A stretch of 64,000 bases of DNA from an uncultured Nitrososphaerota archaeon (GCA_963718895.1 CAVRAG010000008.1:640001-704000); one strand, 5' to 3'; numbered from the stretch's first letter, positions 41,058 through 56,783 are shown. The notes: a model not told the origin generated them from the letters alone. Numbers and translations are program-made.

Positions 41058-44000
41058 TCAGAAAGCCGAGGGCGCCGGTGATAGGCTGGGCTCGGCGCGC
41101 GGCCCGTTCTTCCTGAGCAGCGCGATGGTCGCGACGACAAGGGCCACGACGATTGCGAGAACGAGCACGTACACCAGGTTGGTCAGGGTCCGGAGGTTGT
41201 TCATCATCGAGCTTATCGTGCTCTGGTCAGAGCTCAGCTGAGAGTTGAGGTTCCCAATCGTGCCGTTCGCCGACGACACCTGGGAGGTCAGGGAACCGAT
41301 GGAGCTGTTGACCATCGCAAGCTTGCCCTCGGAGCTGAAGCCGATTGTCGTCGAGGCAGACATTCCGTCCAGCTGCTCTGCGACGACTCGGAGAGAGTGG
41401 ACGCCCACAGAAAGCGATGCCGAGTCCAGCGGGAACGTGTAGGAGGACGAGCCTCCGCTCAGCGTCGTCAGCTGCTTTCCGTCCAAGAAGACCGACACCG
41501 AGGTGATCTGCTGTCCGGTCACCGTGAGACTCCCCACCGTACCGTTGTAGTTCTCGTTCTGCGCAGGCGACTGGACGGAAATTATAGGGATCGAGGGAGA
41601 GATCTGTAGAACTGTCGAATCGTTCAGAGAGACTGTGGAGGCGGTGAGCTTCAGCGAGCCGAGGGTGGTCTGCTGCACCGACAGCTTGCTGTTCTGGGCG
41701 ACTATCGACCCGCCCGAAACCCCGCTGAGGGTGACGGAGGCGTCACTCAGAATCAGCGTTCCCTCGATCTGTGAGGACGATATGGTGAAAGTCCCGCCCT
41801 CGACCGTGGTCGAACCCAGGAAGAGGTCGCCTGTGAGGGTCTGGGAGCCGGAGATCGTGTCGTTCACGAAGGCGGTCTGGGAGGTCTGAGCGAGGGAAGA
41901 AAGGTGCTGGCCGGCGAGGTACAGGTAGGGCTGCACCACGAGACCCTGCTGGGTCGAGATATCTGTCGACGAGGGAACGCCGTCGGCGGAGAGCCCTGAG
42001 ACGAATATCTCGTACGGGCCGCTCAAGTAGAGCGCCCCTGGGTCTATCGACACCGTCCCGCCCGAGTTGTAAGCCGAGGGGAGGGTCACGTTCCCCGACC
42101 AGAGCCCGGTGACGGCGTCATACCAGAGCGGAACCTGTATGGTCTGGGTGAGTGCGTTGTACGAGTTCTGGAGGTCTTTGGGATAGACGGCGGCCGAGTA
42201 CATTCCGTACTTCACACTGCTCCCGTTCGCGTAGTCTATCTTCGCAGAGACTCCAACCACCTGTCCCTCGAAGAGAGTCGGAGAAGATACCGTGATGCTC
42301 GGGCTGGACTCCGAGGGCCCGACGTAGACTTGGCCGAAGTAGTACCCGTCAATGGTCTTGCCCAGCGTGTACGAGTCGAAGGACGAGCGCATAATGACGT
42401 CGTAGAGGCCTGGCGCTGTGCCGCGAGGAACCGTCAATGCGCCCTGAATTCCTTGGACCGTCGAGAGGAAGCTGTTCTCGTAGATCGGCTCGATCGCCAC
42501 TGTCTTCCCGGACTGGCTGACAAGGGAGACGGTGACGTTCGACCCGACCTCGATGTCATAGTAGACCGGGAGACCAGTCTCCAGCGACAGGACATCAGGT
42601 ACGTTTGCCGGCGCGGCCAAGGTCGCGAGGACGAACAGAGACTGGCCGGGAGCGACGACGCCGGGCTCGGCCAAGACCGAGGTCTCGATGAAGGTCGACT
42701 GCATCCCGACCCCGTTTATGAAAGGCAGGTAGCCGTAGACTCCGTCGTTTCCGCTGAAGACCATGGGGCCATCGGCGTAGGCTCCCAGGAGCGTCCCGCT
42801 CCAGAAGCTCCCGATCGCGCCGCTGGTCTTGCCAGCCAGGGTCGCCGCCTTCGCGTAGGTGTTGGAGGCCAACGAGTACGTGGAGGCGGTGAAACTGAAG
42901 GTGGCAGGACCCGCAGGCGTACCGTCAAGGGCCGTGATGTTCGCGACCAGCAGGATGCCGAACTGCGAGTCGTATGGCGCGTCCGGCGAGGGCGTGGTGA
43001 AGTCTGCCAGATAGCCGGTGAAGACACCCGCGAAGCCGGTCCCGGAGACTCCTCCCGAACTCCCGATCACGGTGATGTACGCAAGCCCTGATGCGTTCTG
43101 CGGGGACACTAGCTGACCAACCCAGGACCCGCTCGAGGAGCTGAACGTGAGAGGGACCTTTGCGAGGGTTCCCGTCAGCGTATCCAGCTCTGCGCTGAAG
43201 CTTCCGGTGGAGACCGCCGATGGCCCACTAGCGACGGTCGCGCTCACGGCGAGGGTCGCTCCCGGCATGACATCGGAAGGAGGAAGACCGTTCTCGGTCA
43301 CGGTGACGTTGACCGCCAGGGCCTTCGTGGAGACCGCGCCGAGGCCGTAGTGTGCCATCTCGCCGATGTTGGGGGCGCCCCAACCCGTCGCCATGTTGTA
43401 GCCTGGTTGCGAGACCCATGGGATGATGTATCCGAACGTGATCGGATGGTAGACCTTCGGGTACACCGAGGGGCTCTGGGCGAGGGCGTAGAGGCTGGGG
43501 TTGATCAGGCCAAGCTCCGATCTGGCCGACGCCATGAGCAGCGTGAGCAGTCCAGCTAGGAGGGGTGAGGCCTCGCTCGTTCCTCCGGACACCTCTGTCA
43601 AGTTTCCGGGGACGACCACGGTCACTCCGGGATAGACGTTGGCGTTGAGCGAGAGGTCGGGAACCTCCCTGCCCTGGGCGAACCCGGAGGGGGCCGTGAG
43701 CCCCGCCTGGTACCACGGCAACGGCTCGAGGTCGCTCACGCCACCCGTTCCTCCTCCGTAGTTTACACCGGCGGGGACGAAGCCGTAGTTCGACCACGCC
43801 GTCTGATCGAAGGACGAGACCCGCGACCCGTCGAACGTCAGGTAGGTCGTCGTCCCGCCGACCGCGACGACATAGGGAGAGGTCGAGGGATAGCCCACCG
43901 TGCCCTCCGGCCCGCCGGCGTATCCGCTGCCTCCGACGTCTCCCGTCGACGAGATGAACGTGATGCCCTCTGCGGAGCCGAGCATGTAGTATTGATCAGT

Positions 44001-45134
44001 CAACACGATGTTGAGGTCGAACGAGCTCGCTGTGACGGAGGAGAGCGTGGACTCTGGGAAGCCGAAACTCTGCGAGAGGTCCCCGACCTTGTCCTGGGCA
44101 ACTATCGCCGCGATCGCCGCTGAGAGCGGGAGCGCGCCGTTGGCGACGTAGAGGTCGATGGTCGCCCCGGGGGCCATCGTGTGGGCGGACTCCACGTCCA
44201 GGCTGATCTCAGGCGCCCATCCCTCCGCTGTGCCCAGGCTAGGGTTGTACGCTTCGATCGGAATGACGTTCAGGGGGGAGTTGGGCAGGCCGTACAGCAG
44301 ATCAAAGTAGGCCAGCTGCTGCGCGATATAGGGATCGCCGTAGAAGTCGAGTATCCCAGCGGTGTAGCCCTTCCCGGTGTCCCCCTTCGAGTAGAGCGAG
44401 GTAGCGTTGTAGACGGACTGGAGGTCCGTCAGAGGGTAGGCCTCACCAGGTGCGGTCTGGTTGCTCTCCGAGGACCTCGAGTCGAGGGCCGAGACCATCT
44501 TCTGCGTCACAAGGTCTGGAGGACGGCTGAGAAGGACGGCGGTAACGTTCGAGGCATCGACGTACGCTCCGGGGATGGGGGAGACGCCGGACGCGCTGTA
44601 GTACGAGCTCGTGCCGTTCGAGTACAGCTCGAATCTCAGACCCATGGTCTGAGACACCTGGGACGCGGTTCCCTCGGCCGTGATGATCGAGTCGAGGCTG
44701 CTGCTCATGACCTTGAGGCCTCGCTGCTCGAGGTAGGCGAGGGCCGCTTCGTATTGCGAGGTGGGCAGGAAACTCTGGACCTGGGCCTGTGAGAGGAACT
44801 GGTGGTAGAGTGGCGAGCCTGGCATGGAGATCTGCTGGGTGAGGTACTCGAGAGACTGCACGTTCTGCAGGGGAATCCCCACGGTCACGATCACCGGAGT
44901 CGAGGGTGAGAGAAGACCCGCAGGTCTGTAGCCCGCGAGGAGGGTAGGCTTAACCTGCGCCGGGATGGGAGCAGACAAGGCTCCGGGGCTCGCCGGCGTG
45001 GCCTCGGCGGAGCCGTGCACCGGAATCGAGACTATCAGGGAGAGCGCGAGAAGGAAGACCACCAGCGACGAGAGGAAGAACGCTCGGAGACGCTTCTCGC
45101 CGGGAGGAATCAACGGCGTTTTGAGCCAGGCCAC
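41058..45134 (-). CDS. Membrane-anchored S53 (sedolisin/kumamolisin) peptidase with pro-domain
   Basis: Signal/TM, pro-domain (PGSPLYHQFLS), EISLDVE, STGD, GGTSEASP, YNMATGWG; long C-terminal extension, coiled coil and TM. Confidence 0.92.
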   Translation of the reverse strand: MAWLKTPLIPPGEKRLRAFFLSSLVVFLLALSLIVSIPVHGSAEATPASPGALSAPIPAQVKPTLLAGYRPAGLLSPSTPVIVTVGIPLQNVQSLEYLTQQISMPGSPLYHQFLSQAQVQSFLPTSQYEAALAYLEQRGLKVMSSSLDSIITAEGTASQVSQTMGLRFELYSNGTSSYYSASGVSPIPGAYVDASNVTAVLLSRPPDLVTQKMVSALDSRSSESNQTAPGEAYPLTDLQSVYNATSLYSKGDTGKGYTAGILDFYGDPYIAQQLAYFDLLYGLPNSPLNVIPIEAYNPSLGTAEGWAPEISLDVESAHTMAPGATIDLYVANGALPLSAAIAAIVAQDKVGDLSQSFGFPESTLSSVTASSFDLNIVLTDQYYMLGSAEGITFISSTGDVGGSGYAGGPEGTVGYPSTSPYVVAVGGTTTYLTFDGSRVSSFDQTAWSNYGFVPAGVNYGGGTGGVSDLEPLPWYQAGLTAPSGFAQGREVPDLSLNANVYPGVTVVVPGNLTEVSGGTSEASPLLAGLLTLLMASARSELGLINPSLYALAQSPSVYPKVYHPITFGYIIPWVSQPGYNMATGWGAPNIGEMAHYGLGAVSTKALAVNVTVTENGLPPSDVMPGATLAVSATVASGPSAVSTGSFSAELDTLTGTLAKVPLTFSSSSGSWVGQLVSPQNASGLAYITVIGSSGGVSGTGFAGVFTGYLADFTTPSPDAPYDSQFGILLVANITALDGTPAGPATFSFTASTYSLASNTYAKAATLAGKTSGAIGSFWSGTLLGAYADGPMVFSGNDGVYGYLPFINGVGMQSTFIETSVLAEPGVVAPGQSLFVLATLAAPANVPDVLSLETGLPVYYDIEVGSNVTVSLVSQSGKTVAIEPIYENSFLSTVQGIQGALTVPRGTAPGLYDVIMRSSFDSYTLGKTIDGYYFGQVYVGPSESSPSITVSSPTLFEGQVVGVSAKIDYANGSSVKYGMYSAAVYPKDLQNSYNALTQTIQVPLWYDAVTGLWSGNVTLPSAYNSGGTVSIDPGALYLSGPYEIFVSGLSADGVPSSTDISTQQGLVVQPYLYLAGQHLSSLAQTSQTAFVNDTISGSQTLTGDLFLGSTTVEGGTFTISSSQIEGTLILSDASVTLSGVSGGSIVAQNSKLSVQQTTLGSLKLTASTVSLNDSTVLQISPSIPIISVQSPAQNENYNGTVGSLTVTGQQITSVSVFLDGKQLTTLSGGSSSYTFPLDSASLSVGVHSLRVVAEQLDGMSASTTIGFSSEGKLAMVNSSIGSLTSQVSSANGTIGNLNSQLSSDQSTISSMMNNLRTLTNLVYVLVLAIVVALVVATIALLRKNGPRAEPSLSPAPSAF

Positions 45135-45203: not shown

Positions 45204-46394
45204 TCACCCGACGGTCGAGATGTCGTATCTGCTCTTCAGAAGCCTACCCGAACTGAACCGGTTCAGCCCGAAGACCGAGACGTCGTAGTCTGAGAACCGC
45301 CCGTCGATGACGAGCGAGGCCATGAGCCTGCCGAACTCGGGACACAGTTTGAACCCGTGCCCGCTGAGACCAACCAGGCAGTGGACTCCCGGATAGCCAT
45401 AGCCGGAGAGCTCGTCGATGATCGGCTGCTGGTCTGGGGTGTTGTCGTAGAGACCGCTGTACCCGCGCTCGTACTTCCCCCTCGACGCCATGACGGGGTA
45501 GAGCCCCGCCGTCCACTCGGAGTACTTCTGGACCTCTTCGAAAGTCACTCCCTCATTGTAATCGTCGGGGTCAGCGGCGGCGCTTGACGCGTCGAGCTGC
45601 GCCTCCATCGACCCGACAAAGAGCAGGTCTCTCCCCTCGGCCTTGCAGTAGGCTGAACGGGTGAAGTCGAAGACGGCTGGACGGGTCCCCTGGAACTCAT
45701 CTGGGCGCCCGAAGATCGCGACGGGGTGCCTGACCGGCTTGATCGGCACCGTAATCCCCAAGGCTTCGAAGATTGGGCCGGACCAGACTCCCGTGGCGAG
45801 CACGACCTTGCGCGCCTGCACCTCGCCGGCGGTCGTTTGGAGCGAGTACCCGTCGCCGGCCTTGCTGACATTGAGCAGGAAGGTCCCCGTCAGCACTCTG
45901 CCTCCGAGGGTAGCGGCCGCCGCCGCGAACGAGCCCGCAGTCGTGGATGGCTCTGCGTAGCCCATGTGCGGCTCGTAGACGACCGAGCTGAAACGGTCGG
46001 TGTCGAGAAGCGGCTCGATGCGCCTGGCCTCCTCCTTGTCCACGAAGTCCGACGTTATCCCCATCCGCCTGAACATCTCGAGGTTCTCGCGCACCAGCCC
46101 CTCCGAGCGTCCATCGACCCCTATCAGCAGCCCCGTCTCCCGGTATCCGGCGGTGTGTCCGGGGAGGACCTCACCGAAATCTCTGAAGAAGCGGTAGCTG
46201 AGCAGTGCCATCTTCGCGACCACGGGGACGCTGTAGTGGGTCCTGACGAGAGCGGTGGATCGGCTGGTCTGTCCGGAGGCGATCCCCGCCCCCCTCTCGA
46301 TCAGGAGAGGGCTAGGCGAGCCTCGCTTGGCGAGGTGATAGAGGATGCTGGATCCGGTGGAACCCCCTCCGATCACGGCGACCTCTGTTCGCAT
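45204..46394 (-). CDS. FAD-dependent oxidoreductase (DAO/sarcosine oxidase beta-like)
   Basis: IGGGSTG, QTSRS, YDNTPDQQPII, GLSGHGFKL. Confidence 0.92.
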   Translation of the reverse strand: MRTEVAVIGGGSTGSSILYHLAKRGSPSPLLIERGAGIASGQTSRSTALVRTHYSVPVVAKMALLSYRFFRDFGEVLPGHTAGYRETGLLIGVDGRSEGLVRENLEMFRRMGITSDFVDKEEARRIEPLLDTDRFSSVVYEPHMGYAEPSTTAGSFAAAAATLGGRVLTGTFLLNVSKAGDGYSLQTTAGEVQARKVVLATGVWSGPIFEALGITVPIKPVRHPVAIFGRPDEFQGTRPAVFDFTRSAYCKAEGRDLLFVGSMEAQLDASSAAADPDDYNEGVTFEEVQKYSEWTAGLYPVMASRGKYERGYSGLYDNTPDQQPIIDELSGYGYPGVHCLVGLSGHGFKLCPEFGRLMASLVIDGRFSDYDVSVFGLNRFSSGRLLKSRYDISTVG

Positions 46395-46404
46395 GCGAGT
46401 CGCT

Positions 46405-47208
46405 CTAGGCGGGTATCGAGGCGGCTCTTGTCTGGTTGAAGATGTCGGAGGCTTCTTTGACGGTTGCGCCCTCGTGGACCAGGGACCTGACCCCCTTTAT
46501 CATCGCGACCGGGTGGTCGTTCTGCCAGATGTTCCTTCCCATGTCGACGCCGATTGCTCCCGCCTGGAGAGCGTCGTATGTGAGCTGGAACGCGTCCACC
46601 TCGGTGTTGAGTTTGGGACCGCCTGCGACGACAAGTGGAACGGGGCAGCCTTCGACCACTTTTGAGAATCCTTCGCAGTAGTACGTCTTGACGATGTGGG
46701 CGCCTATCTCGGCCGCTATCCTGCAGGCGAGGCCCAGGTACCTCGCGTCCCTCTTTTCGAGCTCCTTCCCCACGGCGGTGATCGCGACGACCGGCATCCC
46801 ACGTTCCTCTCCTTCGTCGACAAGCTTAGCGAGGTTCAGGAGGGTCTGCCTCTCGTGGGCGGTTCCGACGAAGATCGAGATCGAGACAGCAGAGGCGTTC
46901 AATCGCAGGGCGTCCTTCATCCGCACGGTTAGTCCCTCGTCGCTGAGGTCGTTCTGGAGCACGCTCGTGCCTCCGGAGACGCGGAGAAGTATGGGGACCT
47001 CCCAGGTGGGGTCGACCGACGTCCTGAGGACGCCCCTGGTGACCGAGAGCGCGTCGGCGTACGGTACGAGGGGCTCGAAGGTCCTCCGGGGGACCTCGAG
47101 CTTGCGCGTCGGACCCATGAAGTAGCCGTGATCGCAGGCGAGCATTACGGTCCGGCCGTCGGAAGGCTTGATCATCCGGGCAAGCCTGTTCTTTAGACCC
47201 CAGTCCAT
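46405..47208 (-). CDS. lsrF: 3-hydroxy-5-phosphonooxypentane-2,4-dione thiolase LsrF-like
   Basis: MDWGLKNRL, DHGYFMGPT, RDARYLGLACRIAAEIGA.IVKTYY, AGGPK, GVDMGRNIWQ. Confidence 0.88.
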   Translation of the reverse strand: MDWGLKNRLARMIKPSDGRTVMLACDHGYFMGPTRKLEVPRRTFEPLVPYADALSVTRGVLRTSVDPTWEVPILLRVSGGTSVLQNDLSDEGLTVRMKDALRLNASAVSISIFVGTAHERQTLLNLAKLVDEGEERGMPVVAITAVGKELEKRDARYLGLACRIAAEIGAHIVKTYYCEGFSKVVEGCPVPLVVAGGPKLNTEVDAFQLTYDALQAGAIGVDMGRNIWQNDHPVAMIKGVRSLVHEGATVKEASDIFNQTRAASIPA

Positions 47209-47307
47209 CTCTCCAATTACACCCTGGATGCGTTTCCAACGAGTACGTGATATACGTTATGCTTCTCCCATCAACGTTTAAAAAACCGCGGCAGAGAATT
47301 CGAAGCC

Positions 47308-47808
47308 ATGGCAGGGGCCAGAGCGAAGGTTCCACCGGGCATGAAGATCACCCAGGTGGCTGTCGTCGCCAAGGATCTGAGGAAGACGATGGAGAACTAC
47401 CACAGGGTCATGGGATGGAGGCCGTGGAGCGTCTACGAGCACAAGCCTCCGGTGCTCCATCATACCGAGGTGAGGGGAAAGCCCGTCCGCTACACCATGC
47501 TGGGCGCGGAGGTCCACTGCGACCCCATCGACTTTGAGATCCTGCAGCCGGTCGAGGGCCCGAGCATATACAAGGAGTTCCTCAGGGAGAAGGGAGAGGG
47601 CCTACACCACGTCTCGGTCGTGAACCCCGCCGAGGACGTCCACAGGGCTCTCTTGGAATTCAAGAAGGACGGGATAGAGGTCCTGATGAGCGGGAGGCTC
47701 GAGGGCATCGAGTTCTACTACATGGACACGGAACCAGTCCTGAAGATGGTCGCGGAGACGGTCAGCGGCCACGCGATCTCGCTAAAGCCGAGCTATACGT
47801 ATCCCTAG
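47308..47808 (+). CDS. VOC (glyoxalase/methylmalonyl-CoA epimerase-like) protein
   Basis: ITQVAVVAKDL, FEILQPVEGPSIYKEFL...GEGLHHV. Confidence 0.88.
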   Translation: MAGARAKVPPGMKITQVAVVAKDLRKTMENYHRVMGWRPWSVYEHKPPVLHHTEVRGKPVRYTMLGAEVHCDPIDFEILQPVEGPSIYKEFLREKGEGLHHVSVVNPAEDVHRALLEFKKDGIEVLMSGRLEGIEFYYMDTEPVLKMVAETVSGHAISLKPSYTYP

Positions 47809-49373
47809 GTCCCGGCGGCGCGCCAGAGCGGTCTCACGAGGCCTTCGTCCACCATGGCCAGGGATCGCTCATAGACCTCGAGCCAGTTTGAGTAGAGGCC
47901 CCGGTAGAGCTCGTAGTTCGTGCGTGAGGGCTCGATCTTCTTCTCGGTTTTTGCGAGGCCGACCGCGGCCTCCTGCACGTCACCGTACCATCCTGCGCCT
48001 TTCCCGGCGCAGATCGCGGTCCCCAACGAGGTGCTCTCTTTGACGACCGGAATCTTCACCTCGACACCCAGGACGTCCGAGACGACCTGCGGCCATAGGC
48101 TCCCCTTGGAAGCGCCTCCCGTTAGGGTGACCTGCCGCGTGCGACCCCTAGTAATCTCCTCTATGATATTCAGGTGGCCCAGGGCCACGTAGGCCGCGGC
48201 CTCCTCGATGGCGCGGACGCACTCCTTCTTGCCCGATCGGCTCGGGTTGCCGACGTCGAACTGCATCAGAGCAGGGGAGGCGTGAATCCAGCGCTTTGAG
48301 TTCATCATGTTGGAGAAGATACCCAGTACGCCCTCCGAGCCAGGCGGGACCGAGCGCGCCGAGTCCTCCATTATGGTGTAGGCGTCGGTCCCGTGGCGCC
48401 TCGCCTCCTCCTTCTCGCTCTGGCAGAACCCGTCCCTGAACCACCTCATCGTCAGGCCGCAGTAGAAGCCTATCCCTTCCATCATCCACTGTCCCGGGAT
48501 AGCGTGGCAGAGGGTCCTGAGCCTCATCTTCCGGTCTATCCGCGCCGTGTCCATCAGCACCGTCGTCTGCCAGAAGCTTCCTCCCACTATCGTGATTCTG
48601 TTCGGACCGCCCGCGCCTATCCCGACGAGCCCCATCTGGGTGTCCCCGCCCCCTGTGACGACGGGAGTCCCAGGGGCCAGGCCGGTCTCGAGGGCTGCCT
48701 TAGGCGTGACTGCGCCAATCTCGTTCCCCGACTCGACCACCTCCGGGAAGATGTCTCTTTCAAGGCTGCAGAGTTCGGCTATCGCGGGAGACCATCTTCT
48801 CCGCTTAAGGTCGAACATCGCCGAGCTCGAGCCCACCGAAGGGTCGGTCACGAACCGACCCGAGAGCCGATAAAGTATCCAGTCACTCAGCATTCCCATG
48901 TGCGCGACCTTCCTGAAGATCTCGGGCCTGTTTCGCTGGATCCAGAGGAACCTCGGAGGGGCGGTTATCGAGACCCAGTCTCCGCTCTCAAAGTAGATCT
49001 TCTCGGCCGCGCCGTCCCTGACCATCATGCGGGCCTCCTCCAAGGCACGGGAATCGACGTTCGGACAGGCCCAGATCTCCCTGCCCCTGGCGTCGTAGAG
49101 GACCATGCCCTCCCTCATACTGCTTGCGCTCACGGCGCCGATCTGAGAAGGTTCAATCGACCCCGCGAACAGCGCCTCCCTGATGCAGTGTGAGATAAGC
49201 TTCCAGTTCCGTCTTGTCTCGAAGACCTGGGACCCCGGAACCCCGGGCACCGGCCGGTGGGTCCACTCGTGCTGTGCTATCGAGAGCTGGTGGCCCAGTC
49301 TGTCGAAGACCGTCGCCCGGCAGCTTCCCGTCCCCGCGTCTATCGCCATTACGTACTGCGGCAAACACGTCAC
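47805..49373 (-). CDS. lsrK: Autoinducer-2 kinase LsrK-like (FGGY family)
   Basis: AIDAGTGSCR, SMREGMVLY...IWACPNVDSRA, GGGDTQ, GGSFWQ, GGASKG.LWPQ, C-terminal LWRAAG. Confidence 0.85.
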   Translation of the reverse strand: MTCLPQYVMAIDAGTGSCRATVFDRLGHQLSIAQHEWTHRPVPGVPGSQVFETRRNWKLISHCIREALFAGSIEPSQIGAVSASSMREGMVLYDARGREIWACPNVDSRALEEARMMVRDGAAEKIYFESGDWVSITAPPRFLWIQRNRPEIFRKVAHMGMLSDWILYRLSGRFVTDPSVGSSSAMFDLKRRRWSPAIAELCSLERDIFPEVVESGNEIGAVTPKAALETGLAPGTPVVTGGGDTQMGLVGIGAGGPNRITIVGGSFWQTTVLMDTARIDRKMRLRTLCHAIPGQWMMEGIGFYCGLTMRWFRDGFCQSEKEEARRHGTDAYTIMEDSARSVPPGSEGVLGIFSNMMNSKRWIHASPALMQFDVGNPSRSGKKECVRAIEEAAAYVALGHLNIIEEITRGRTRQVTLTGGASKGSLWPQVVSDVLGVEVKIPVVKESTSLGTAICAGKGAGWYGDVQEAAVGLAKTEKKIEPSRTNYELYRGLYSNWLEVYERSLAMVDEGLVRPLWRAAGT

Positions 49374-50413
49374 CTCAGGGTCTCGGGGTTGACGACTGTC
49401 TCGAGCGGTTCGCCCTCCAGGTATCGCTCCACCTGCTTCGCGACTATCATGGCACCCTTGGTCGTTGTCTCGAAGGTCGCCCCGCCGATGTGGGGCATGA
49501 CTATGGTGTTGTCCATCTCGATGAGCGGGTTGACCGGCCTCGACGGGTCATAGCGGACCACGTCCATCCCGGCGCCGGCAAGTCGACCCTCCCTGAGCGC
49601 AGAGCACAGGGCCCCCTCATCCACCATGCTGGGCCTGGAGGTGTTGATGAAGAAGGCCCCTCGCTTCATCATCGAGAACTGTCCCGATCCCATGAGGTTC
49701 TCGTTCTCCTTCGACTCCCGCGCATGAAGGGATACAAAGTCGGACCTTGTGAGCACCTCCTCGAGGCCGGCGACACGCACGCCTTCGGACTCGATCTTCG
49801 ACCTGTCGACGTAGGGGTCGTAGACCAGCACCGCCATCCCGAACCCTATGGCCCGCTTGGCTACCCGGGAGCCGACCCTGCCGAACCCGATCAGACCGAG
49901 TGTCTTCCCATCCAGCTCGTGCCCGAAGAACTGGTTCCCCTCGTAGTTGTCTTTCCCCGCAACCCGGGTCGTTCTCACATGCGTATAGGCGCGGACGAGG
50001 TTCCGAGAGAGCATGACCATGAGGGCGACGGTGAGCTCCGCCACTGCCTCGGCGTTCTTCCCCGGAGCGGTGATGACCGGGATGCGCCTCGCGCTGGCTG
50101 CCGCCACGTCGACGTTCACGGGTCCACCGCGGGCGCAGCAGAGTACCTTCAGGTTCCTTCCTGCGGCGAGGACCTCCTCCGAGACCGGCGCGCCGTGCAC
50201 GACGAGGACCTCGGCGTCACCAACCTCCGAGATGAGCTGGCGGTTGGATCCGAGATACTCTCGCAACGACTTCTCGGAGGCGCTCCCAGGCACGAGCTTC
50301 TCGTCCTCGTCGAGTTTCAGGAACCTGACCTCGTTGGCCTTCGCTATCCCCTCGAAAGCCTCCCTGAAGTAGTCCAGCGTGATGAAGCTGTCCCCGACGA
50401 TGAGCATCCTCAA
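49370..50413 (-). CDS. D-isomer-specific 2-hydroxyacid dehydrogenase
   Basis: PGKNAEAVAE, GLIGFGRVG, INTSR, PHIGGAT; stop overlaps the lsrK start. Confidence 0.92.
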   Translation of the reverse strand: MRMLIVGDSFITLDYFREAFEGIAKANEVRFLKLDEDEKLVPGSASEKSLREYLGSNRQLISEVGDAEVLVVHGAPVSEEVLAAGRNLKVLCCARGGPVNVDVAAASARRIPVITAPGKNAEAVAELTVALMVMLSRNLVRAYTHVRTTRVAGKDNYEGNQFFGHELDGKTLGLIGFGRVGSRVAKRAIGFGMAVLVYDPYVDRSKIESEGVRVAGLEEVLTRSDFVSLHARESKENENLMGSGQFSMMKRGAFFINTSRPSMVDEGALCSALREGRLAGAGMDVVRYDPSRPVNPLIEMDNTIVMPHIGGATFETTTKGAMIVAKQVERYLEGEPLETVVNPETLR

Positions 50414-50419
50414 GGAGCC

Positions 50420-51175
50420 TTACCTCATCCCCCTGCCGCCGGCGACTGTGAGCACTTCTCCCGTTATCCAGTCGGCTTCGTCTGAAGCGAGGAAGGTCGC
50501 GGCGGCTGCCGTGTCGTAGGTTCTGCCCAGCCGCTTGAGGAAGGTCTCGCCCGCTATGAGGAGCTTCGTCTCCTGTGGCATCGAGGCGAGTATGTCAGTC
50601 TCCGTCGTTCCGGGGCAAATCGCGTTCACTGTGATCTCGGGTCCGAGCCTGACCGCGAGCGACCGGGTAAGCCCGATCATCCCGGCCTTTGACGAGACGT
50701 AGTCAGGATATCTCAGGGCCGAGGGCTGCGCGAGGGCCGAGACAGAGGAGATGTTGATGATCTTCCCCTTCTTCTGGGTGAGCATGAGGGGCGCGACCTC
50801 CCTGCAGCACAGGTAGGCTCCCTTGAGGTTCACGTCCAGCACGCGGTCCCAGTCCTCGTCCGTCGAGTCGAGGAAGTCCTTCGCGACTAATACCCCGGCG
50901 TTGTTGACCAGTATATCCACTCGACCGAACTTCCCGACGGTCTTGGAGACCATCCGCTTGACCTCGGGCGACTTCGAGACGTCAGCCTTCACGAGCAGAG
51001 ATCTGCCGCCTTCTCTCTTGATCTCCTCTACGACGTTCTTCGCCTCCTCCTCGGAGCTCCGGTAGTTCACCACCACCCTCGCACCCTCGGAGGCGTACAT
51101 TCTCGCGATCGCTGCGCCGATCCCCTTACTTGCGCCCGTCACTATAGCCACCTTTCCCCTGAGACGCTGCGCCAT
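50420..51175 (-). CDS. SDR (FabG-like) oxidoreductase
   Basis: TGASKGIG, NNAG, YVSSK, VNAICPG. Confidence 0.94.
   Translation of the reverse strand: MAQRLRGKVAIVTGASKGIGAAIARMYASEGARVVVNYRSSEEEAKNVVEEIKREGGRSLLVKADVSKSPEVKRMVSKTVGKFGRVDILVNNAGVLVAKDFLDSTDEDWDRVLDVNLKGAYLCCREVAPLMLTQKKGKIINISSVSALAQPSALRYPDYVSSKAGMIGLTRSLAVRLGPEITVNAICPGTTETDILASMPQETKLLIAGETFLKRLGRTYDTAAAATFLASDEADWITGEVLTVAGGRGMR
50745..50830 (-). repeat. 86-bp perfect inverted repeat, copy 1
   Basis: Reverse complement is identical to 53319-53404. Confidence 0.95.
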
Positions 51176-51223
51176 GGCTGCTCGGCCCACGCGGCAGATG
51201 CCCGTAATATAGGTTCAGACCGA

Positions 51224-52813
51224 TTACTCTGGCGGAATCTCTTGGAGGACCGCGCCTAGGTTGATGCCCTTGCCCTTGAAGTAGTAGTACCTGGCGACGT
51301 AGATGATTATGCCAGACCCGAAGATGGTCGCGAGGAGGGCGTCAGCGGCAGGGGTAGCAGGCCCGATAGCCGGGGTCGTGACCGCGAAGTAGAGGGTTAT
51401 CGCCATTGCGACGACCGAGAGAAACCCGAATATCTGGAGCACGCGGGGACCACCGGAAAGTCCCTTTGCCAGCTCCTTCCTCCGAATGGGGAAGACTATG
51501 GCAGATATCCCGACTATAATCCAGACGATCGACCAGATGGTGGTGGTGTTGAGGACCTGCCCGATGTAGCTCGTGTACGCGGTGAAGGCCACGAGGATGG
51601 CTCCAACTACAAGCGTGAGTATCGTGGCCTTGATCGGGATGTGCAACCTCTCGTTGATGTCCGCGAAGGTCGAGGGGAGTATCCTGTCGAAGGAGAACGC
51701 GAAGACGTACCTCGAGGCGCTCAGGACTAGTCCGCATGCCCACCAGGGGAAGAACACCAGGAACGAGAACTGAACGAAGGTCGCTAGGTACGCGTTCCCC
51801 AGAATCGCCGGTACAAAGACGGCCAGCCAGGGGGCGACACCGAGGGAGAGTTGGCCCGAACCGAAGAGCGAGAACGCGGCCTGATTGAACGGGTAGGAGA
51901 GCATGCGCATGGCGAAGAAGAGGCCGACAATGTCGATGATCGCGCATATCGCGAGCGCAATCACGACACCCCAGAGCATGCTGTACTTCGCGTTCTTGAC
52001 CTCACCCGAGATGTAGACCGAGTAGTTGAATCCGTTGAAGAGAAGGACCCCGAAGGGGATGCTGAGAAGAGTCGCGCTGGTCGTGATGGGGAGATAGGGG
52101 AAGTTGTTGCTCGCAGCCGCGGACAACACGCCGTTGTAGGTCACGCTCGGAGCGCCCGATGTGCCACTGAAGAAGTTCGTGAAGTCGGTTGCGAACGAGG
52201 CGTTGGACGTCCCTATCACGAACGCGAGCATTATGAAGGTCCCGAGGAAGACTATAATCGCCAAGGTTATCATGACCTTGCTGTAGATCTTCGCGCCCAG
52301 GCTCGTTATGATGACACCGAAAATTACCACCCCTAGCATCCCCGACAGGAAGACGTTGTTGGGGGTAACGAAACTTGTGGCCCAGTTGATCAACCCCACG
52401 TTGTGCCAGGTGTAACCCATCGTGAGCGCGAAGTCGGGTACTACGACCGAACCCCAGGCGCCCGCGCCGCCCGAGAGCAGCGCGACGAAGGACAGCCACA
52501 TAGCCCATCCCGCGACGAAGCCGACGCTCGGGTGAAGACTTCTGCCCATCCAGATGTAGTCGCCTCCGGAGCGAGGCATCTGAGTGGCAAAGATGTAGTA
52601 CATTATCCCGAGCGGGACCATGAAGAGGACGCCGATGATCGCGGAGATGGTGAACTCGGCTCCAGGGTCGGACGGTGCGATGTAGCCAATCTGGGAAGCG
52701 ATTCCGAAGTACGTGGGACCGGTGACGGCGAGACTTACGATGAGAGCGTCGTACCAGCTGAATGACCTTACTAGACCAGTAGCGTCCCGCATGAAAGCGG
52801 ACTTGCTAGCCAA
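51224..52813 (-). CDS. APC-family amino acid permease
   Basis: FMRDATGLVR, MPRSGGDY, GEVKN, SRYVFAFSFDRILP; about 12 TM helices. Confidence 0.93.
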   Translation of the reverse strand: MASKSAFMRDATGLVRSFSWYDALIVSLAVTGPTYFGIASQIGYIAPSDPGAEFTISAIIGVLFMVPLGIMYYIFATQMPRSGGDYIWMGRSLHPSVGFVAGWAMWLSFVALLSGGAGAWGSVVVPDFALTMGYTWHNVGLINWATSFVTPNNVFLSGMLGVVIFGVIITSLGAKIYSKVMITLAIIVFLGTFIMLAFVIGTSNASFATDFTNFFSGTSGAPSVTYNGVLSAAASNNFPYLPITTSATLLSIPFGVLLFNGFNYSVYISGEVKNAKYSMLWGVVIALAICAIIDIVGLFFAMRMLSYPFNQAAFSLFGSGQLSLGVAPWLAVFVPAILGNAYLATFVQFSFLVFFPWWACGLVLSASRYVFAFSFDRILPSTFADINERLHIPIKATILTLVVGAILVAFTAYTSYIGQVLNTTTIWSIVWIIVGISAIVFPIRRKELAKGLSGGPRVLQIFGFLSVVAMAITLYFAVTTPAIGPATPAADALLATIFGSGIIIYVARYYYFKGKGINLGAVLQEIPPE

Positions 52814-52976: not shown

Positions 52977-53729
52977 GTGATGCGCCTAAATGGCAGGGTA
53001 ACGATAGTGACGGGAGCTTCTCGAGGAATCGGCAGGGCGATCGCAAAACGCTTCGCCAAGGAAGGCGCGAAGGTCGTGATAAATTACAACCACTCCAGGT
53101 CCCAGGCAGCGAAGCTTCTCAGGGAGATACAGGGCGCGGGAGGCGAGGCGATCATAGTCAAGGCTGACGTCTCCAACCCCCGCGACGTCAAGAGGCTCGT
53201 GAAGAAAGCAGTTGAGGCTTACGGGCGGGTCGACGTGCTGGTCAACAACGCGGGAGTCTTGTTCCAAGAGACTTTCCTCGACGCGCCGGAAGACGTCTGG
53301 GACAAGACGATTGACATCAACCTCAAGGGAGCCTACCTGTGCTGCAGGGAGGTCGCGCCCCTCATGCTCACCCAGAAGAAGGGGAAGATCATCAACATCT
53401 CCTCGAACTCCGGAGCGTATCACCCTTCGGCGATGAGGCTTGTGGAGTACACCACCTCGAAGGCAGGAATGAACGGGCTGACCAAGGCCCTCGCTCTGAA
53501 GCTGGGACCGTACGTCACCGTCAATGCGATCCTACCCGGCAGGATAGAGACGGACATGACCGCCGGAGTCTCCCCGGAGTCTTCGAGGGCCGTCGTGGAC
53601 GAGACGCCCCTGAAGAGGTTGGGTACGCCCGACGAGGTGGCGAACGCCGCCGTTTACCTCGCTTCGGACGATTCGGACTTCGTTACGGGCGAACTGCATA
53701 TGGTCACCGGTGGCCGAGGCATGCACTGA
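52977..53729 (+). CDS. SDR (FabG-like) oxidoreductase
   Basis: TGASRGIG, NNAG, YTTSK, VNAILPG. Confidence 0.94.
   Translation: MMRLNGRVTIVTGASRGIGRAIAKRFAKEGAKVVINYNHSRSQAAKLLREIQGAGGEAIIVKADVSNPRDVKRLVKKAVEAYGRVDVLVNNAGVLFQETFLDAPEDVWDKTIDINLKGAYLCCREVAPLMLTQKKGKIINISSNSGAYHPSAMRLVEYTTSKAGMNGLTKALALKLGPYVTVNAILPGRIETDMTAGVSPESSRAVVDETPLKRLGTPDEVANAAVYLASDDSDFVTGELHMVTGGRGMH
53319..53404 (+). repeat. 86-bp perfect inverted repeat, copy 2
   Basis: AACCTCAAGGGAGCC...ATCAACATCTCCTC, identical to the reverse complement of 50745-50830. Confidence 0.95.
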
Positions 53730-53791: not shown

Positions 53792-54778
53792 ATGTCTGTC
53801 TCAAGACGGCGCAAAGACCGCGCGATACCCGCGGAAGAAAAAGTCAATGCACCGATGACCGAGGCCGAGTTCGACCAGCTCTTTCACGACGTCTCGAACT
53901 GGGGCCGCTGGGGCGAAGCGGACGAGAGGGGGACCCTCAACTACCTGACCCCCGAACACGTGAAGAACGCCGCCTCGCTGGTCCGCTCAGGTCGGTCCAT
54001 CTCGCTGTCGAGGGAGGTCGACTCGGTTCCGGAGGTCGACAACCCTAATCCGGCGATTCACCTTATGATCAGGGGCTACGACGTTCCCGCGAGCGGTGGC
54101 GAACCACAGTTCGTCTCAGACTACCTCGGTTGCGGCTGCCACGGGAATGCCCACTCTCACGTTGATGCGCTCTGCCACGTCGCCTACAAGGGGAGGCTCT
54201 ACAACAACAGACCGCTCAGCACTGTGACCACCCAGGGTGCGAACGCCATGGACATCACGACCTACGCCAACGGGATCGTGGGCCGGGGAGTACTCCTGGA
54301 CATACCGAAGGTGAGAGGGACCAGGTGGCTGGAACCTGGCGACGCGGTCACATCAGAGGACCTACTGGCCGCGGAACACAAGCAGGGGGTGCGCCTCGGC
54401 GAGGGAGACATCTTCGTGTTTCGCGTCGGCCATCCTCTGCGTCGTAAGGAGGTCGGGCCCTGGAACATCGAACACGGGGGCCAAGGCAGGGCGGGTCTCC
54501 ACCCGACGGCGATGCGCCTTCTGCACGAACGGAAGATAGCGGCGTTCCTCCCGGACGGGGACGGTGAGACCGTTCCGAGCAATGTCACGGGCGTGCTCCA
54601 TCCAGTCCACGCGCTTCAGATCGGCGCAATGGGCCTGGCGTGCGGCGACAGCCTGCAGTTCGAGGAGCTTGCAAAGGTCTGCGAGGAGGAGAGACGGTGG
54701 GAGTTCATGGTCACCCTCGCGCCGCTAAGGCTGCCCCACGGGACAGGCTCTCTCGTCAACCCGATCGCGATATTCTGA
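53792..54778 (+). CDS. Cyclase family metal-dependent hydrolase
   Basis: NWGRWG...GTLN, HGNAHSHVDALCH, GRGVLLD, GTGSLVNP. Confidence 0.9.
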   Translation: MSVSRRRKDRAIPAEEKVNAPMTEAEFDQLFHDVSNWGRWGEADERGTLNYLTPEHVKNAASLVRSGRSISLSREVDSVPEVDNPNPAIHLMIRGYDVPASGGEPQFVSDYLGCGCHGNAHSHVDALCHVAYKGRLYNNRPLSTVTTQGANAMDITTYANGIVGRGVLLDIPKVRGTRWLEPGDAVTSEDLLAAEHKQGVRLGEGDIFVFRVGHPLRRKEVGPWNIEHGGQGRAGLHPTAMRLLHERKIAAFLPDGDGETVPSNVTGVLHPVHALQIGAMGLACGDSLQFEELAKVCEEERRWEFMVTLAPLRLPHGTGSLVNPIAIF

Positions 54779-54839: not shown

Positions 54840-55928
54840 ATGAACATCGACGAGCTACCTACTCCGGCGGTCGTCATCGACCTCGACGCGGTCGAGCGGA
54901 ACATCAAGAAGATGCAGGACTTTGTGAACTCGAGGGGTTGCGGCGTCAGGCCGCACGCCAAGTCGCACAAGAGTCCGTTCATCGCGAGGAAGCAGATGGA
55001 CGCTGGCGCCGTGGGCCAGTGCTGCCAGACGATAGTCGAGGCGGAGGCGTTGATGCTGAACGGGATTGACCACGTGCTCCTCACGACCAACCTGGCGAGC
55101 CAGGGTTCCATCGAGAGGTTCCTAAACCTCGGCAGGAACGGGGACATCAAGATCATAGTAGACGGAAAGGAGAACGCTGAGATGCTCGCCAGGGCTGCCC
55201 GGCACAGAGGGATGACAGCGGACGTGGTGGTCGACCTGGACGTTGGGGGGAACAAGACGGGACAGCAGCCCGGGGAACCGGCCGCGAGGTTCGCCAAGTG
55301 GATAATCGAGACGGACGGACTGCGCTTCAGAGGAATCCAGGGGTACGAGGGGCACCTACAGATCAGCACGCCAGACTTTGAGGAGAGGAAGACCAAGACC
55401 ATGGAGGCGCTCGGGAAGATCACGGCTACCATCGAGGCGCTCAAGGCGCTCGGGATCACCCCTGAGATAGTCACCTGCGGCGGGACCGGGACCTACAACA
55501 TCTCCGCGGGATATCCTGGCGTGACGGACATCCAGCCTGGTTCGTACATCTATATGGACCGGCGGTACGGAGAGATTGGGTCTGCCGGGACAGACTTCGA
55601 GAAATCGATGTCCGTCGTCGCCACGGTCATCAGCGCCCCCACCCCAACCAGGGCGGTGACCGATCTGGGCTGGAAAGGAGTCGGCATCGAGTACGAGGCA
55701 ATCGGGTTCGGAGGAATGCCCACCCCGCTGCTCCCGGGCCTCAAGTACAGTCCCGGGGGCGACGAGCACGGGATCCTCACAGCGCAGGAGCCCAGATATC
55801 GGCCGAACGTCGGCGACAGGGTGAGGTTCCTACCCGCACACTGTGACACTACGCTGAACCTCTACGGATTCTTCTACGGGGTCAGGGGAGACAGGGTAGA
55901 GGTCGTCGGCCCTGTCGCCCGACGCTGA
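54840..55928 (+). CDS. DSD1/D-threonine aldolase family PLP enzyme
   Basis: TPAVVIDL, RPHAKSHK, YEGH, GGTGT, QPGSYIYMD, DEHG, PAHCD. Confidence 0.92.
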   Translation: MNIDELPTPAVVIDLDAVERNIKKMQDFVNSRGCGVRPHAKSHKSPFIARKQMDAGAVGQCCQTIVEAEALMLNGIDHVLLTTNLASQGSIERFLNLGRNGDIKIIVDGKENAEMLARAARHRGMTADVVVDLDVGGNKTGQQPGEPAARFAKWIIETDGLRFRGIQGYEGHLQISTPDFEERKTKTMEALGKITATIEALKALGITPEIVTCGGTGTYNISAGYPGVTDIQPGSYIYMDRRYGEIGSAGTDFEKSMSVVATVISAPTPTRAVTDLGWKGVGIEYEAIGFGGMPTPLLPGLKYSPGGDEHGILTAQEPRYRPNVGDRVRFLPAHCDTTLNLYGFFYGVRGDRVEVVGPVARR

Positions 55929-55940
55929 GGCGACTCGTGG

Positions 55941-56783
55941 TTGAAGTTCGGGCTGGCCGTCTCCGGCAGAGGCAATCTGAAGGTGATAGAGAAGATGGCG
56001 CTGAAGGCCGACGAGGTAGGGTACGACAGTTTCCTTGTCACGGATCACTTCCTTCACCCAGTGAGCAACGACCACATCGACGTCTGGTCCTTCCTGCCCT
56101 ACCTCGCCGGGAAGACCAACAGGATAAGGCTCGGGACGTGCGTAACTCCGCTTCCGCTCCGTCAGCCGGCGGTCCTTGCCAAGACGATAGCCTCCTGCGA
56201 CGTCCTGTCCGGGGGGAGGATGATCCTGGGCGCCGGCTTCGGCTGGTACAGGCCTGAGTTCGATGCGTTCTCAAAGTGGCTTGAGACCGGAGAGAGGATC
56301 GCCTACAGCAGGGAGGCGCTAGAGCTGATGCTCCGCCTCTGGCACGAGAAGGAGCCGTTCGACTTTCACGGGAGGTTCATCGAGGCCAAGGGGGTGGTTG
56401 TAGAGCCGAGACCAGTGCAGAAACCGCACCCGAGCATCCTCTGGGGTGGCCATCTGTCTGCCTCGCTAAGAACGGCCGGACGGTACGCAGATGGGTGGAT
56501 GCCCATCGGGCCGAGGTGGTTCGACGACGAGTATCCCAGACCCCAGGAGTACGCCGTGATGAGGGAGAAGATCCTCGGGGAGATGAAGAGGCTCGGACGC
56601 CCTACATCTGGGTTCATCTTCACCAATATCATCAACATGGCAGATACCAAGATAGTGCGGGCGGACCTTGAGCGGTATGTCCAGTCGGGCGTCAACTACT
56701 TCACCCTGGGCGACAAGGCCAAAGACGAAGCGTCGGTAAGAGAGATAGAGAGGGTCGCAAGGGAAGTCGGGGGGTCGTTCTGA
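55941..56783 (+). CDS. LLM-class flavin/F420-dependent oxidoreductase
   Basis: GYDS...DH, IRLGTCV, DVLSGGR..LGAG.GW, PVQKPHP. Confidence 0.92.
   Translation: MKFGLAVSGRGNLKVIEKMALKADEVGYDSFLVTDHFLHPVSNDHIDVWSFLPYLAGKTNRIRLGTCVTPLPLRQPAVLAKTIASCDVLSGGRMILGAGFGWYRPEFDAFSKWLETGERIAYSREALELMLRLWHEKEPFDFHGRFIEAKGVVVEPRPVQKPHPSILWGGHLSASLRTAGRYADGWMPIGPRWFDDEYPRPQEYAVMREKILGEMKRLGRPTSGFIFTNIINMADTKIVRADLERYVQSGVNYFTLGDKAKDEASVREIERVAREVGGSF

Follow-up and report, generated by a model that had tools for sequence, protein, structure and literature searches.

An accessory kinase island beside a resident LsrF-type gene in a Nitrososphaerota archaeon: signal processing or sugar catabolism?

Does an archaeon that encodes relatives of the bacterial enzymes LsrK and LsrF consume the quorum signal autoinducer-2 (AI-2)? 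The question is raised by a 64,000-nucleotide stretch of DNA from an uncultured Nitrososphaerota archaeon (GCA_963718895.1 CAVRAG010000008.1:640001-704000), which was analysed as a whole and is called the window here. In it, a gene for an LsrF-type class I aldolase-fold enzyme of the P-HPD (3-hydroxy-5-phosphonooxypentane-2,4-dione) thiolase family (46405-47208, minus strand) is located near a gene for an LsrK-type FGGY kinase (47805-49373, minus strand). An earlier note on this DNA had read the pair as the capacity to consume bacterial AI-2, or alternatively to feed on a sugar resembling 4,5-dihydroxy-2,3-pentanedione (DPD). In the present analysis, the AI-2 part of that claim was weakly supported and the genomic context spoke against it, while the DPD-like alternative fitted the data. 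The explanation considered best, with a probability of roughly 0.55, is that an accessory catabolic island feeds a DPD-like phospho-sugar to a resident LsrF, which would cleave it to dihydroxyacetone phosphate (DHAP) and acetyl-CoA.

Both genes are real and intact, and their similarity to the bacterial enzymes is far beyond chance. The kinase gene is an intact open reading frame (ORF) of 522 amino acids with a GTG start at 49373; its public protein model, 514 amino acids long and covering 98% of the query, is annotated 'autoinducer-2 kinase'. The translation holds SMREG, IWACPNVD, GGSFWQ and the C-terminal LWRA, and it contains the FGGY N- and C-terminal domains (PF00370 and PF02782). It scored 625.3 bits against the NCBIfam autoinducer-2 kinase hidden Markov model (HMM) NF008187, with a cut-off of 528 and the next model, xylulokinase, at 209 bits, matched the E. 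coli LsrK structure 5ya0 with an E value of 1.9e-142 and was 43% identical to E. coli K-12 LsrK in tblastn. The LsrF-type gene, an intact ORF of 267 amino acids, encodes DHG, KTYY and DMGRN. Its product reached 381.3 bits against NF006081 (3-hydroxy-5-phosphonooxypentane-2,4-dione thiolase; cut-off 297), with 196 bits for the ADH synthase model, matched the E. coli LsrF structure 3gkf with an E value of 2.5e-79 and was 49.6% identical to K-12 LsrF. All the motifs quoted in the earlier note were thus found in the translations, and its assignment of the two proteins to the LsrK and LsrF families was borne out by HMM scores, structure matches and catalytic residues.

The window LsrF residues D26, H27, K174, G196, G197, D222, G224 and R225 correspond to E. 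coli D57, H58, K203, G226, G227, D251, G253 and R254, and all eight are identical. In the available text of Diaz et al. 2009 (PMC2728841), Lys203 is the Schiff-base lysine, and Asp57 and a phosphate site of His58, Gly226, Gly227, Gly253 and Arg254 are assigned. Asp251 is specific to LsrF; the FBA-like paralogue in the host genome has Gln58 and Ala251 and the ADH-synthase paralogue has Thr251. A pocket change specific to one class was looked for between canonical LsrFs and those of the gene cassette described below, and none was found. The conserved residues, together with the lack of such a change, suggest that the window LsrF may perform CoA-dependent cleavage of P-HPD to DHAP and acetyl-CoA.

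The host is archaeal, as had been stated before: genes for a thermosome and for a geranylgeranyl-reductase-like protein are present elsewhere in the window, and the nearest kinase homologues carry the source labels Nitrososphaerota, Thaumarchaeota or Nitrososphaerales archaeon. The genome to which the window belongs (G000) comprises 3.13 Mb in 11 contigs and is 80.5% complete and 5.4% contaminated; because of this completeness, genes missing from it are provisionally reported as 'not found' and not as 'absent'. Archaeal amoA was not found in G000 and is present in three genomes from other families of the order. The GC content over the island (0.61-0.63) showed no anomaly relative to the range across the window (0.54-0.65). 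Among the sequencing runs listed for 46405-52813 none was of RNA; those listed came from soil or peat DNA and had partial shares.

The gene at 46405-47208 is a resident single-copy gene of the lineage and the order, not co-acquired with the kinase. Of the 201 genomes sampled from the order, 168 (G584 and ammonia oxidisers among them) have a protein over the NF006081 cut-off. In two families (f2 and f4), 40 of 40 genomes each matched the model at E <= 1e-10, and the members of these families that were checked carry archaeal amoA. Where all matches of a genome were listed, which was the case for six genomes with G000 among them, exactly one copy was over the cut-off, besides weaker DhnA paralogues, and all order copies examined keep the D57 H58 K203 G226 G227 D251 G253 R254 signature. 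Since these 168 genomes mostly lack LsrK, passing the NF006081 cut-off does not imply AI-2 processing. The window LsrF is 87% identical to the copy of a genome of the same genus without LsrK (G427), 63-65% identical to the copies of ammonia oxidisers and the sister genus and 50% identical to that of E. coli. The ammonia-oxidiser and sister-genus copies are closer to E. coli LsrF (55-60%) than are the Firmicutes LsrFs from true lsr operons (47-54%).

Among 29 loci from well-assembled genomes of the order, 23 have a gene for a zinc-dependent alcohol dehydrogenase (Zn-ADH) of the threonine-dehydrogenase-like type no more than about 1.5 kb from the LsrF-type gene; it almost always abuts that gene, mostly upstream and on the same strand. 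The order loci with an LsrF-type gene are L105, L106, L121, L122 and L127-L153. Ammonia oxidisers also carry a true ADH synthase (330 bits, cut-off 299), and in G000 the dehydroquinate (DHQ) synthase II gene directly follows an ADH-synthase-like gene, which means that the ADH synthase of aromatic amino acid synthesis in archaea is a protein other than LsrF. The ADH-synthase-like gene of G000, situated outside the window upstream of DHQ synthase II (contig C8:436028-437838), is read in two frames (436028-436564 and 436575-436811). This may reflect either a frameshift or an assembly error in a gene of the archaeal aromatic amino acid pathway.

The kinase is part of a different kind of segment. 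The earlier note had placed the two genes 600 bp apart; the spacing is 596 bp, and the gap is not empty but filled by a gene that the note had not mentioned, encoding a 166-aa protein of the VOC/glyoxalase fold (Glyoxalase_4; 47308-47808, plus strand), which is convergent with LsrK with a 4-bp stop overlap. On the other side, the LsrK start is overlapped by 4 bp by the stop of a gene for a 347-aa PGDH-like D-isomer-specific 2-hydroxyacid dehydrogenase (2HADH; 49370-50413, minus strand) with 2-Hacid_dh and 2-Hacid_dh_C domains. A first SDR oxidoreductase (50420-51190, minus strand; NF005559, glucose 1-dehydrogenase subfamily, 249.3 bits vs 215) and an APC-superfamily, amino-acid-type permease with the AA_permease_2 domain (51224-52813, minus strand) complete a minus-strand unit APC-SDR1-2HADH-LsrK, in which the permease comes first and the overlaps or gaps are 4 to 33 bp. 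A divergent plus-strand unit starts with a second SDR oxidoreductase (52977-53729; 248.8 bits vs 215 for the same model), followed by a cyclase-family (PF04199) metal hydrolase (53792-54778), the only PDB relative of which is the uncharacterised 5ibz, and by a D-threonine-aldolase-like (DTA-like) pyridoxal-phosphate (PLP) enzyme (54840-55928). The latter matched the D-threonine aldolase 7dib (E 5.2e-72) and the D-3-hydroxyaspartate aldolase 6qkb (E 4.2e-62). On the far side of LsrF, 10 bp downstream, an FAD-dependent oxidoreductase of the DAO family is encoded (45204-46394, minus strand).

LsrK was identified in only 2 of 401 sampled genomes of the phylum, in 9 of the family's 97 genomes, with 8 scoring over the cut-off, and in 8 of 23 genomes of the genus including G000, and the window gene order is kept in the genus relatives. 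In G427 (locus L119), the flanking SDR, S53 peptidase, DAO and LsrF genes are kept and the cyclase gene lies about 200 bp past LsrF; the VOC-LsrK-2HADH-SDR-APC-SDR segment is cleanly missing between LsrF and cyclase. In G436 (L018), the segment is decaying, with an in-frame TGA in LsrK and with 2HADH, APC and SDR2 gone. In the sister genus, G477 carries the island in another order, VOC, LsrK, 2HADH, LsrF, with no flanking genes in common with two genomes of its genus. Its LsrF is 79% identical to the window-genus type vs 64-65% to the type of its own genus, which, given the unshared flanks, indicates that the island moved there together with an LsrF. The kinase segment is therefore an accessory island set against a resident LsrF, in two gene orders in archaea, and the VOC/LsrK/2HADH/SDR/APC/SDR segment was most likely acquired horizontally. 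As LsrF sits inside the same cassette in most bacteria, the placement of the island against LsrF suggests functional coupling in the window too; it is not proof.

The LsrK alignment was searched against species-representative genomes and gave 593 relatives, of which the best 80 loci were kept and, together with three own loci, made up a set of 83. Nocardiopsis and Pseudogracilibacillus were among the sources of the loci recovered. Their neighbourhoods were typed by tblastn with the window genes and the E. coli Lsr proteins, at thresholds chosen by the authors; ORF calling was crude in high-GC loci and the metagenome-assembled genomes are incomplete. Canonical loci with lsrR-lsrK and lsrACDB and usually lsrF, mostly from Bacillota, formed type A (15 of 83). 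Type B (43 of 83), defined by the adjacency of 2HADH and LsrK, with 2HADH directly upstream of LsrK in all its loci by that definition, has the order VOC-2HADH-LsrK, usually then LsrF, and was found in Actinomycetota, Chloroflexota, Dormibacterota, Eisenbacteria, Acidobacteriota, Pseudomonadota and Nitrososphaerales; seven more loci had VOC but no adjacent 2HADH. In type C (6 of 83; Bathyarchaeia, Spirochaetota and Anaerolineae), LsrK is accompanied by a class II aldolase-family gene, and the type of 12 loci was left undecided. The window locus has 2HADH directly upstream of LsrK, VOC and LsrF adjacent and APC, SDR, DTA-like and cyclase genes within 10 kb, and so belongs to type B.

A maximum-likelihood tree of the 83 kinases, with SH-aLRT (approximate likelihood-ratio test) values as its only support, united all type-A kinases and E. 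coli LsrK in one 21-row clade (SH-aLRT 100, stem 0.81). The window kinase fell outside this canonical clade, in a separate four-row Nitrososphaerales clade among type-B and type-C sequences; the root is unsure because of very long outgroup branches. Among the columns at least 90% conserved in both classes, 118 were identical and 18 differed between canonical and cassette kinases. The window kinase had the type-B, non-canonical residue at 18 of these 18 fixed differences, which type C mostly shares. Several of the 18 positions presumably adjoin motifs that bind the substrate in glycerol kinase. According to the available text of PMC5983913, no DPD-bound LsrK structure exists for mapping a binding pocket. 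The LsrK name given earlier thus held in the HMM comparison and not in the phylogeny, an outcome close to the one, a kinase in another FGGY clade, that the earlier note itself had held to speak against its claim.

The NF008187 cut-off was not discriminating, since it was also passed by kinases in unrelated pentulose-type clusters without LsrF. The kinase of G339 (Thermoproteota), at 661.9 bits, scored even higher than the window kinase and has two Zn-ADHs, a sugar ABC importer and an AraD-like class II aldolase-family protein as neighbours; LsrF was not found within the 20 kb searched. More generally, kinases over the 'autoinducer-2 kinase' cut-off were observed at L019 (G339), L022, L027, L063, L064 and L072 in Bathyarchaeia, another Thermoproteota lineage, Spirochaetota and Anaerolineae, beside AraD-like class II aldolase-family genes, Zn-ADHs and sugar ABC importers, and most of these loci are without LsrF. 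Judged by gene content, such clusters look like pentitol or pentulose catabolism, which means that the NCBIfam name over-predicts AI-2 kinases.

The type-B cassette was tallied in 29 loci of at least 19 kb against the 15 canonical loci. VOC was present in 27, SDR in 25, LsrF in 24 and DTA-like genes in 24 of the 29; an APC permease within 10 kb was found in 20, cyclase in 14, a SorC/LsrR-like regulator in 14, DUF4432 in 11 and an Rpe-like epimerase in 10. None of the VOC, 2HADH, DTA-like, cyclase, SDR and APC genes occurred in the 15 type-A loci. Kinase identity was 48-66% over the loci typed B and 52-62% for the bacterial ones. In Chloroflexota L045, all the genes are co-directional in the order LsrF-Rpe-SorC-APC-DUF4432-DTA-SDR-cyclase-VOC-2HADH-LsrK, and the Rpe-like protein, at 212.8 bits, was barely above the 212.6 bits required by the rpe equivalog model. 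The epimerases of Rpe-like and AraD-like type that occur in LsrK gene clusters suggest pentulose-phosphate-like intermediates. Three tandem DTA-like paralogues are located beside the cassette in L034, L051 and L076 (Chloroflexia), which hints that the enzymes may act on several stereoisomeric or related substrates. In the literature searched, no description was found of the cassette or of archaeal LsrK, nor of other functions for LsrF or LsrK homologues.

The remainder of the Lsr system was sought in the whole G000 assembly with the E. coli K-12 Lsr proteins as tblastn queries (E <= 1e-3) and with HMM searches for LuxS and the ABM fold, which ran with positive controls. LsrB, LsrC, LsrD, LsrR and LsrG gave no match in tblastn, LsrA matched generic ABC ATPases only, and neither LuxS nor the ABM fold of the LsrG type (PF03992) gave an HMM match. 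The lack of luxS, lsrR and lsrABCD that had been noted for the window therefore extends to the assembly, and the genome search for further lsr genes, which had been proposed as a check, yielded no LsrACDB, LsrR or LsrG. For LsrG this says little, because it was found within 10 kb in none of the 83 loci, and thus in none of the 15 canonical ones either. Five bacterial type-B genomes also gave no LuxS match.

The VOC protein is a candidate for a metal-dependent isomerase in place of LsrG. It was present in 39 of 42 type-B loci and in none of the 15 canonical loci, and 37 of its positions are at least 95% identical in 44 cassette-linked homologues, E77, H101 and E150 among them; the conserved acidic and histidine residues are compatible with a metal site. 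Its nearest PDB structure, 3gm5 (E 1.7e-18), has no assigned function, and the ESM Atlas returned generic VOC clusters only. The 2HADH matched the PDB PGDH 1wwk with an E value of 8.9e-51, and no NCBIfam model was over its cut-off (best PGDH, 245 bits vs 454).

Gene content, family membership, catalytic residues, conservation of the cassette and the accessory status of the island relative to the resident LsrF are thus observed, and a pathway that would join them can be outlined, in which every substrate and the order of steps is our proposal. An amino-acid-like (zwitterionic) sugar derivative would be imported by the APC permease and trimmed by the PLP aldolase, the SDRs and the hydrolase to a small keto-sugar. 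The LsrK-type kinase would phosphorylate the terminal CH2OH of a C5 keto-diol of the DPD or 1-deoxypentulose type. The 2HADH and the VOC metalloenzyme might then set the carbonyl pattern, which is the job of LsrG in E. coli, and yield 3-hydroxy-2,4-pentanedione 5-phosphate or a close analogue, and the LsrF-type enzyme would split this product with its Schiff-base lysine into DHAP and acetyl-CoA.

Several points weigh against this explanation. No known compound was found that accounts for every gene; Amadori compounds, S-ribosylhomocysteine, 2-amino-2-deoxy-aldonates and 1-deoxy-D-xylulose were considered as substrates, and none accounts for all genes. The 2-hydroxyacid dehydrogenases normally use carboxylic acids, so that an acid-sugar route fits this enzyme better than a deoxypentulose does, and the D-threonine-aldolase-like step has no clear tie to a C5 deoxy-sugar. 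The APC permeases of different loci are often only 22-24% identical and were tallied by family, so that their recurrence reflects a common family and does not require orthology. The direction of transfer rests on the patchy distribution and on the tree with its very long outgroup branches. The adjacency of island and LsrF could be historical and not functional, because most of the order evidently has a working LsrF and no LsrK, and the incompleteness of the genome leaves the absences on which the explanation draws provisional.

If the pair served AI-2 scavenging or quenching, DPD would enter the cell by some unspecified route, be trapped by LsrK as phospho-DPD and pass through the VOC protein, in place of LsrG, to LsrF for cleavage to DHAP and acetyl-CoA. 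Both proteins are over the NCBIfam equivalog cut-offs and, at 43% and 49.6% identity, clearly resemble the E. coli enzymes, the LsrF residues are fully conserved and 118 kinase columns are the same in both classes, canonical and cassette. An AI-2 system need not be marked by LsrG, which 0 of 15 canonical loci have within 10 kb, nor is LuxS required for DPD, which, according to the available text of PMC2443158, also forms without it from ribulose-5-phosphate. Such a role of the pair was nevertheless considered improbable. The kinase is placed outside a canonical clade that has full SH-aLRT support and a long stem, and it deviates at every fixed difference; no LsrACDB, LsrR or LuxS was found in G000, and the transporter of the island is a permease of amino-acid type. 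Seven other conserved partner families play no part in AI-2 processing, and LuxS is missing from all five bacterial cassette genomes. The kinase HMM cut-off is also passed by kinases of pentulose-type clusters without LsrF, and LsrF itself is order-wide without LsrK. Hence the claimed capacity to consume bacterial AI-2 is not supported by the context, with an order-wide LsrF, a non-canonical kinase and cassette partners foreign to lsr operons, although use of DPD or AI-2 by the archaeon is possible.

The other two alternatives each explain a part of the genes, and both were judged quite unlikely. In a tetronate-type acid-sugar route, an aldose would be converted through a lactone to an aldonate, from which 2HADH would make a 2-oxo acid isosteric with DPD; LsrK would phosphorylate it, VOC would shift the keto group and LsrF would decarboxylate the product through its Schiff base to DHAP and CO2. 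The 2HADH enzymes do use 2-hydroxy acids, both SDRs are over the glucose 1-dehydrogenase subfamily cut-off, hydrolase candidates are present, and the DTA-like enzyme could conceivably free a tetrose from a 2-amino-2-deoxy-hexonate. The route would also map one-to-one onto the four-step tetronate pathway, in which, as far as the available texts of PMC12994016 and PMC13753588 show, L-threonate or D-erythronate is converted to DHAP by a dehydrogenase (Ltn2D or Den2D), OtnI, OtnK and OtnC. The class II aldolase-family genes beside LsrK in clusters without LsrF, however, are AraD-like epimerases, and these, together with Rpe, point to pentulose phosphates; moreover, the cassette LsrFs have no conserved basic residue to bind a carboxylate and no class-specific pocket change. 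Among the class II aldolase-family genes beside the kinase (type-C loci and L032), three of seven were over the NF005123 cut-off and the OtnC model gave 73-90 bits vs 250, while the type-B genes of this family (L042 and L046) gave 57 bits or no match at E <= 1e-10 with the OtnC model. With the OtnI model, an L039 protein reached 60.8 bits vs 325 and the PF01261 protein of the window gave no match at E <= 1e-10. An OtnC-type decarboxylase or OtnI-type isomerase beside the kinase was accordingly rejected, as no protein was over the NCBIfam cut-offs. Alternatively, the two genes could be neighbours only, with LsrF keeping an order-wide housekeeping job and the LsrK segment being a pentulose- or pentitol-type kinase route into the pentose phosphate pathway. 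In at least 159 sampled genomes LsrF does its job with no LsrK present, and Bathyarchaeia and other lineages have kinases of this family beside AraD-like epimerases and Zn-ADHs but no LsrF with them. It is difficult to reconcile chance proximity, however, with the 24 of 29 full-length bacterial loci whose cassette contains LsrF, with the island touching LsrF in two different gene orders in archaea and with the presence in G477 of an LsrF of the window-genus (g1) type together with the island, and not of its own genus's type.

The reading of the island as a catabolic supplier of LsrF can be extended, more tentatively and with less likelihood, to LsrF-type enzymes in general. These might not be quorum-signal enzymes by origin but the end of a widespread dehydrogenase-plus-thiolase route from deoxy-pentulose phosphates to DHAP and acetyl-CoA, which would be housekeeping in Nitrososphaerales and extended to external substrates by the LsrK cassette, with the enterobacterial AI-2 Lsr system as a late offshoot. 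A dehydrogenase beside LsrF does recur, as Zn-ADH in the order at large and as 2HADH in the cassette (adjacent in G477), and we infer that the usual LsrF substrate, P-HPD or an analogue, could generally be made by oxidising a deoxy-pentulose phosphate, the LsrG route from phospho-DPD being a special case. Sources of the phosphates might be the 5-deoxyribose that radical-SAM enzymes leave behind, or DPD arising from ribulose-5-phosphate or sugar-amine adducts, and the housekeeping form, ammonia oxidisers included, would be the Zn-ADH-LsrF gene pair; that order-wide pair may constitute such a route. If so, the archaeon could also burn DPD or AI-2 as a side activity.

Further features were located around the pair. 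In the 99-bp divergent spacer between LsrF and VOC, a TATA-box-like element, TTTAAAAAA (47277-47285, plus strand), is centred about 27 nt upstream of the VOC ATG; it is placed like an archaeal TATA box and may function as a promoter element. Two looser members of the island follow the DTA-like gene on the plus strand, a luciferase-like monooxygenase (55941-56783; assigned by Pfam), which is syntenic in the genus loci, and a xylose-isomerase-like TIM-barrel protein (56785-57669; PF01261), a family found in 4 of 42 type-B loci. The DAO gene was syntenic in eight of eight same-genus cassette loci searched (L011-L013 and L015-L018; L021 is on the same contig as L017) and stays with LsrF in G427, which has no kinase segment; overall, it was found in only 1 of 42 type-B loci. 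A secreted or anchored protein of 1358 aa with a pro-kumamolisin (S53 peptidase) activation domain is encoded at 41058-45134 (minus strand), and it occurs with 58-78% identity beside DAO-LsrF in all genus relatives examined. A DUF4432 protein, of the family seen within bacterial type-B operons (11 of 29 loci), is encoded 30 kb from the island (14379-15416, plus strand). At 21664-23553 (minus strand), a 629-aa ORF has a C-terminal Oxidored_q6 domain (NADH dehydrogenase 20-kDa subunit) and a LAGLIDADG-type domain upstream, and it looks like an intein-bearing NuoB-like gene.

These findings bear on how such genes are named. The kinase genes are already public under the annotation 'autoinducer-2 kinase', the NCBI model of the second gene is titled 'P-HPD thiolase', and metagenome surveys tally such matches as archaeal quorum sensing. 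AI-2 genes were counted in 78% of archaeal metagenome-assembled genomes (PMC12781772), and in the available text of PMC11442133 'lsrF' is reported in all marine ammonia-oxidiser genomes and read as AI-2 signal processing. Enzymes from very dissimilar genomic surroundings score above each of the two HMM cut-offs, which speaks against interpreting the genes as signalling genes. For the ammonia-oxidiser LsrF, its occurrence throughout the order without LsrK and beside a dehydrogenase argues for core metabolism, and the window pair is poor evidence for eavesdropping on bacteria, because its LsrF is order-wide and its LsrK belongs to a sugar-breakdown island common to soil bacteria. The locus draws attention instead to two things: a carbon route, so far uncharacterised, that abundant soil bacteria and heterotrophic Thaumarchaeota would have in common, and a core pairing of LsrF with a dehydrogenase, still unexplained, in Thaumarchaeota, ammonia oxidisers included.

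Compared with the Lsr system of E. coli and Salmonella, the window has a homologous kinase (43%) and cleavage enzyme (49.6%) with identical LsrF catalytic residues. Salmonella lsr includes the Rpe-like LsrE, and the bacterial cassettes likewise have an Rpe-like epimerase and a SorC/LsrR-type regulator. The two systems differ in that no ABC importer, LsrR or LsrG was found in G000 and the kinase is outside the canonical clade, in the addition of VOC, a PGDH-like dehydrogenase, an APC permease, SDRs, a DTA-like enzyme and a cyclase-family hydrolase, and in the status of the window LsrF as a resident order-wide gene. The tetronate pathway has four formally equivalent steps to DHAP (dehydrogenase, keto-shifting isomerase, kinase and C-C cleavage), but all four of its enzymes are from other families than those of the cassette. 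In the DHAP shunt for 5-deoxyribose and the methanogen DKFP (6-deoxy-5-ketofructose 1-phosphate)/ADH-synthase route, deoxy-pentulose phosphates are also cleaved to DHAP, and G000 and ammonia oxidisers have ADH synthase, the DhnA-fold paralogue, as well as DHQ synthase II. These routes use class II aldolases or ADH synthase, whereas the window-type LsrF has Asp251 and pairs with a dehydrogenase. The closest counterpart is the bacterial type-B cassette, which has the same gene families in the same core order; the window differs from it in its archaeal host, in an LsrF only 53-54% identical to a bacterial cassette LsrF, in an island without a SorC regulator or Rpe-like gene and in the FAD oxidoreductase that adjoins LsrF. 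The locus can thus be described as an Lsr-like lower pathway with different partners and no signal importer, for which the archaeal host supplies its own LsrF.

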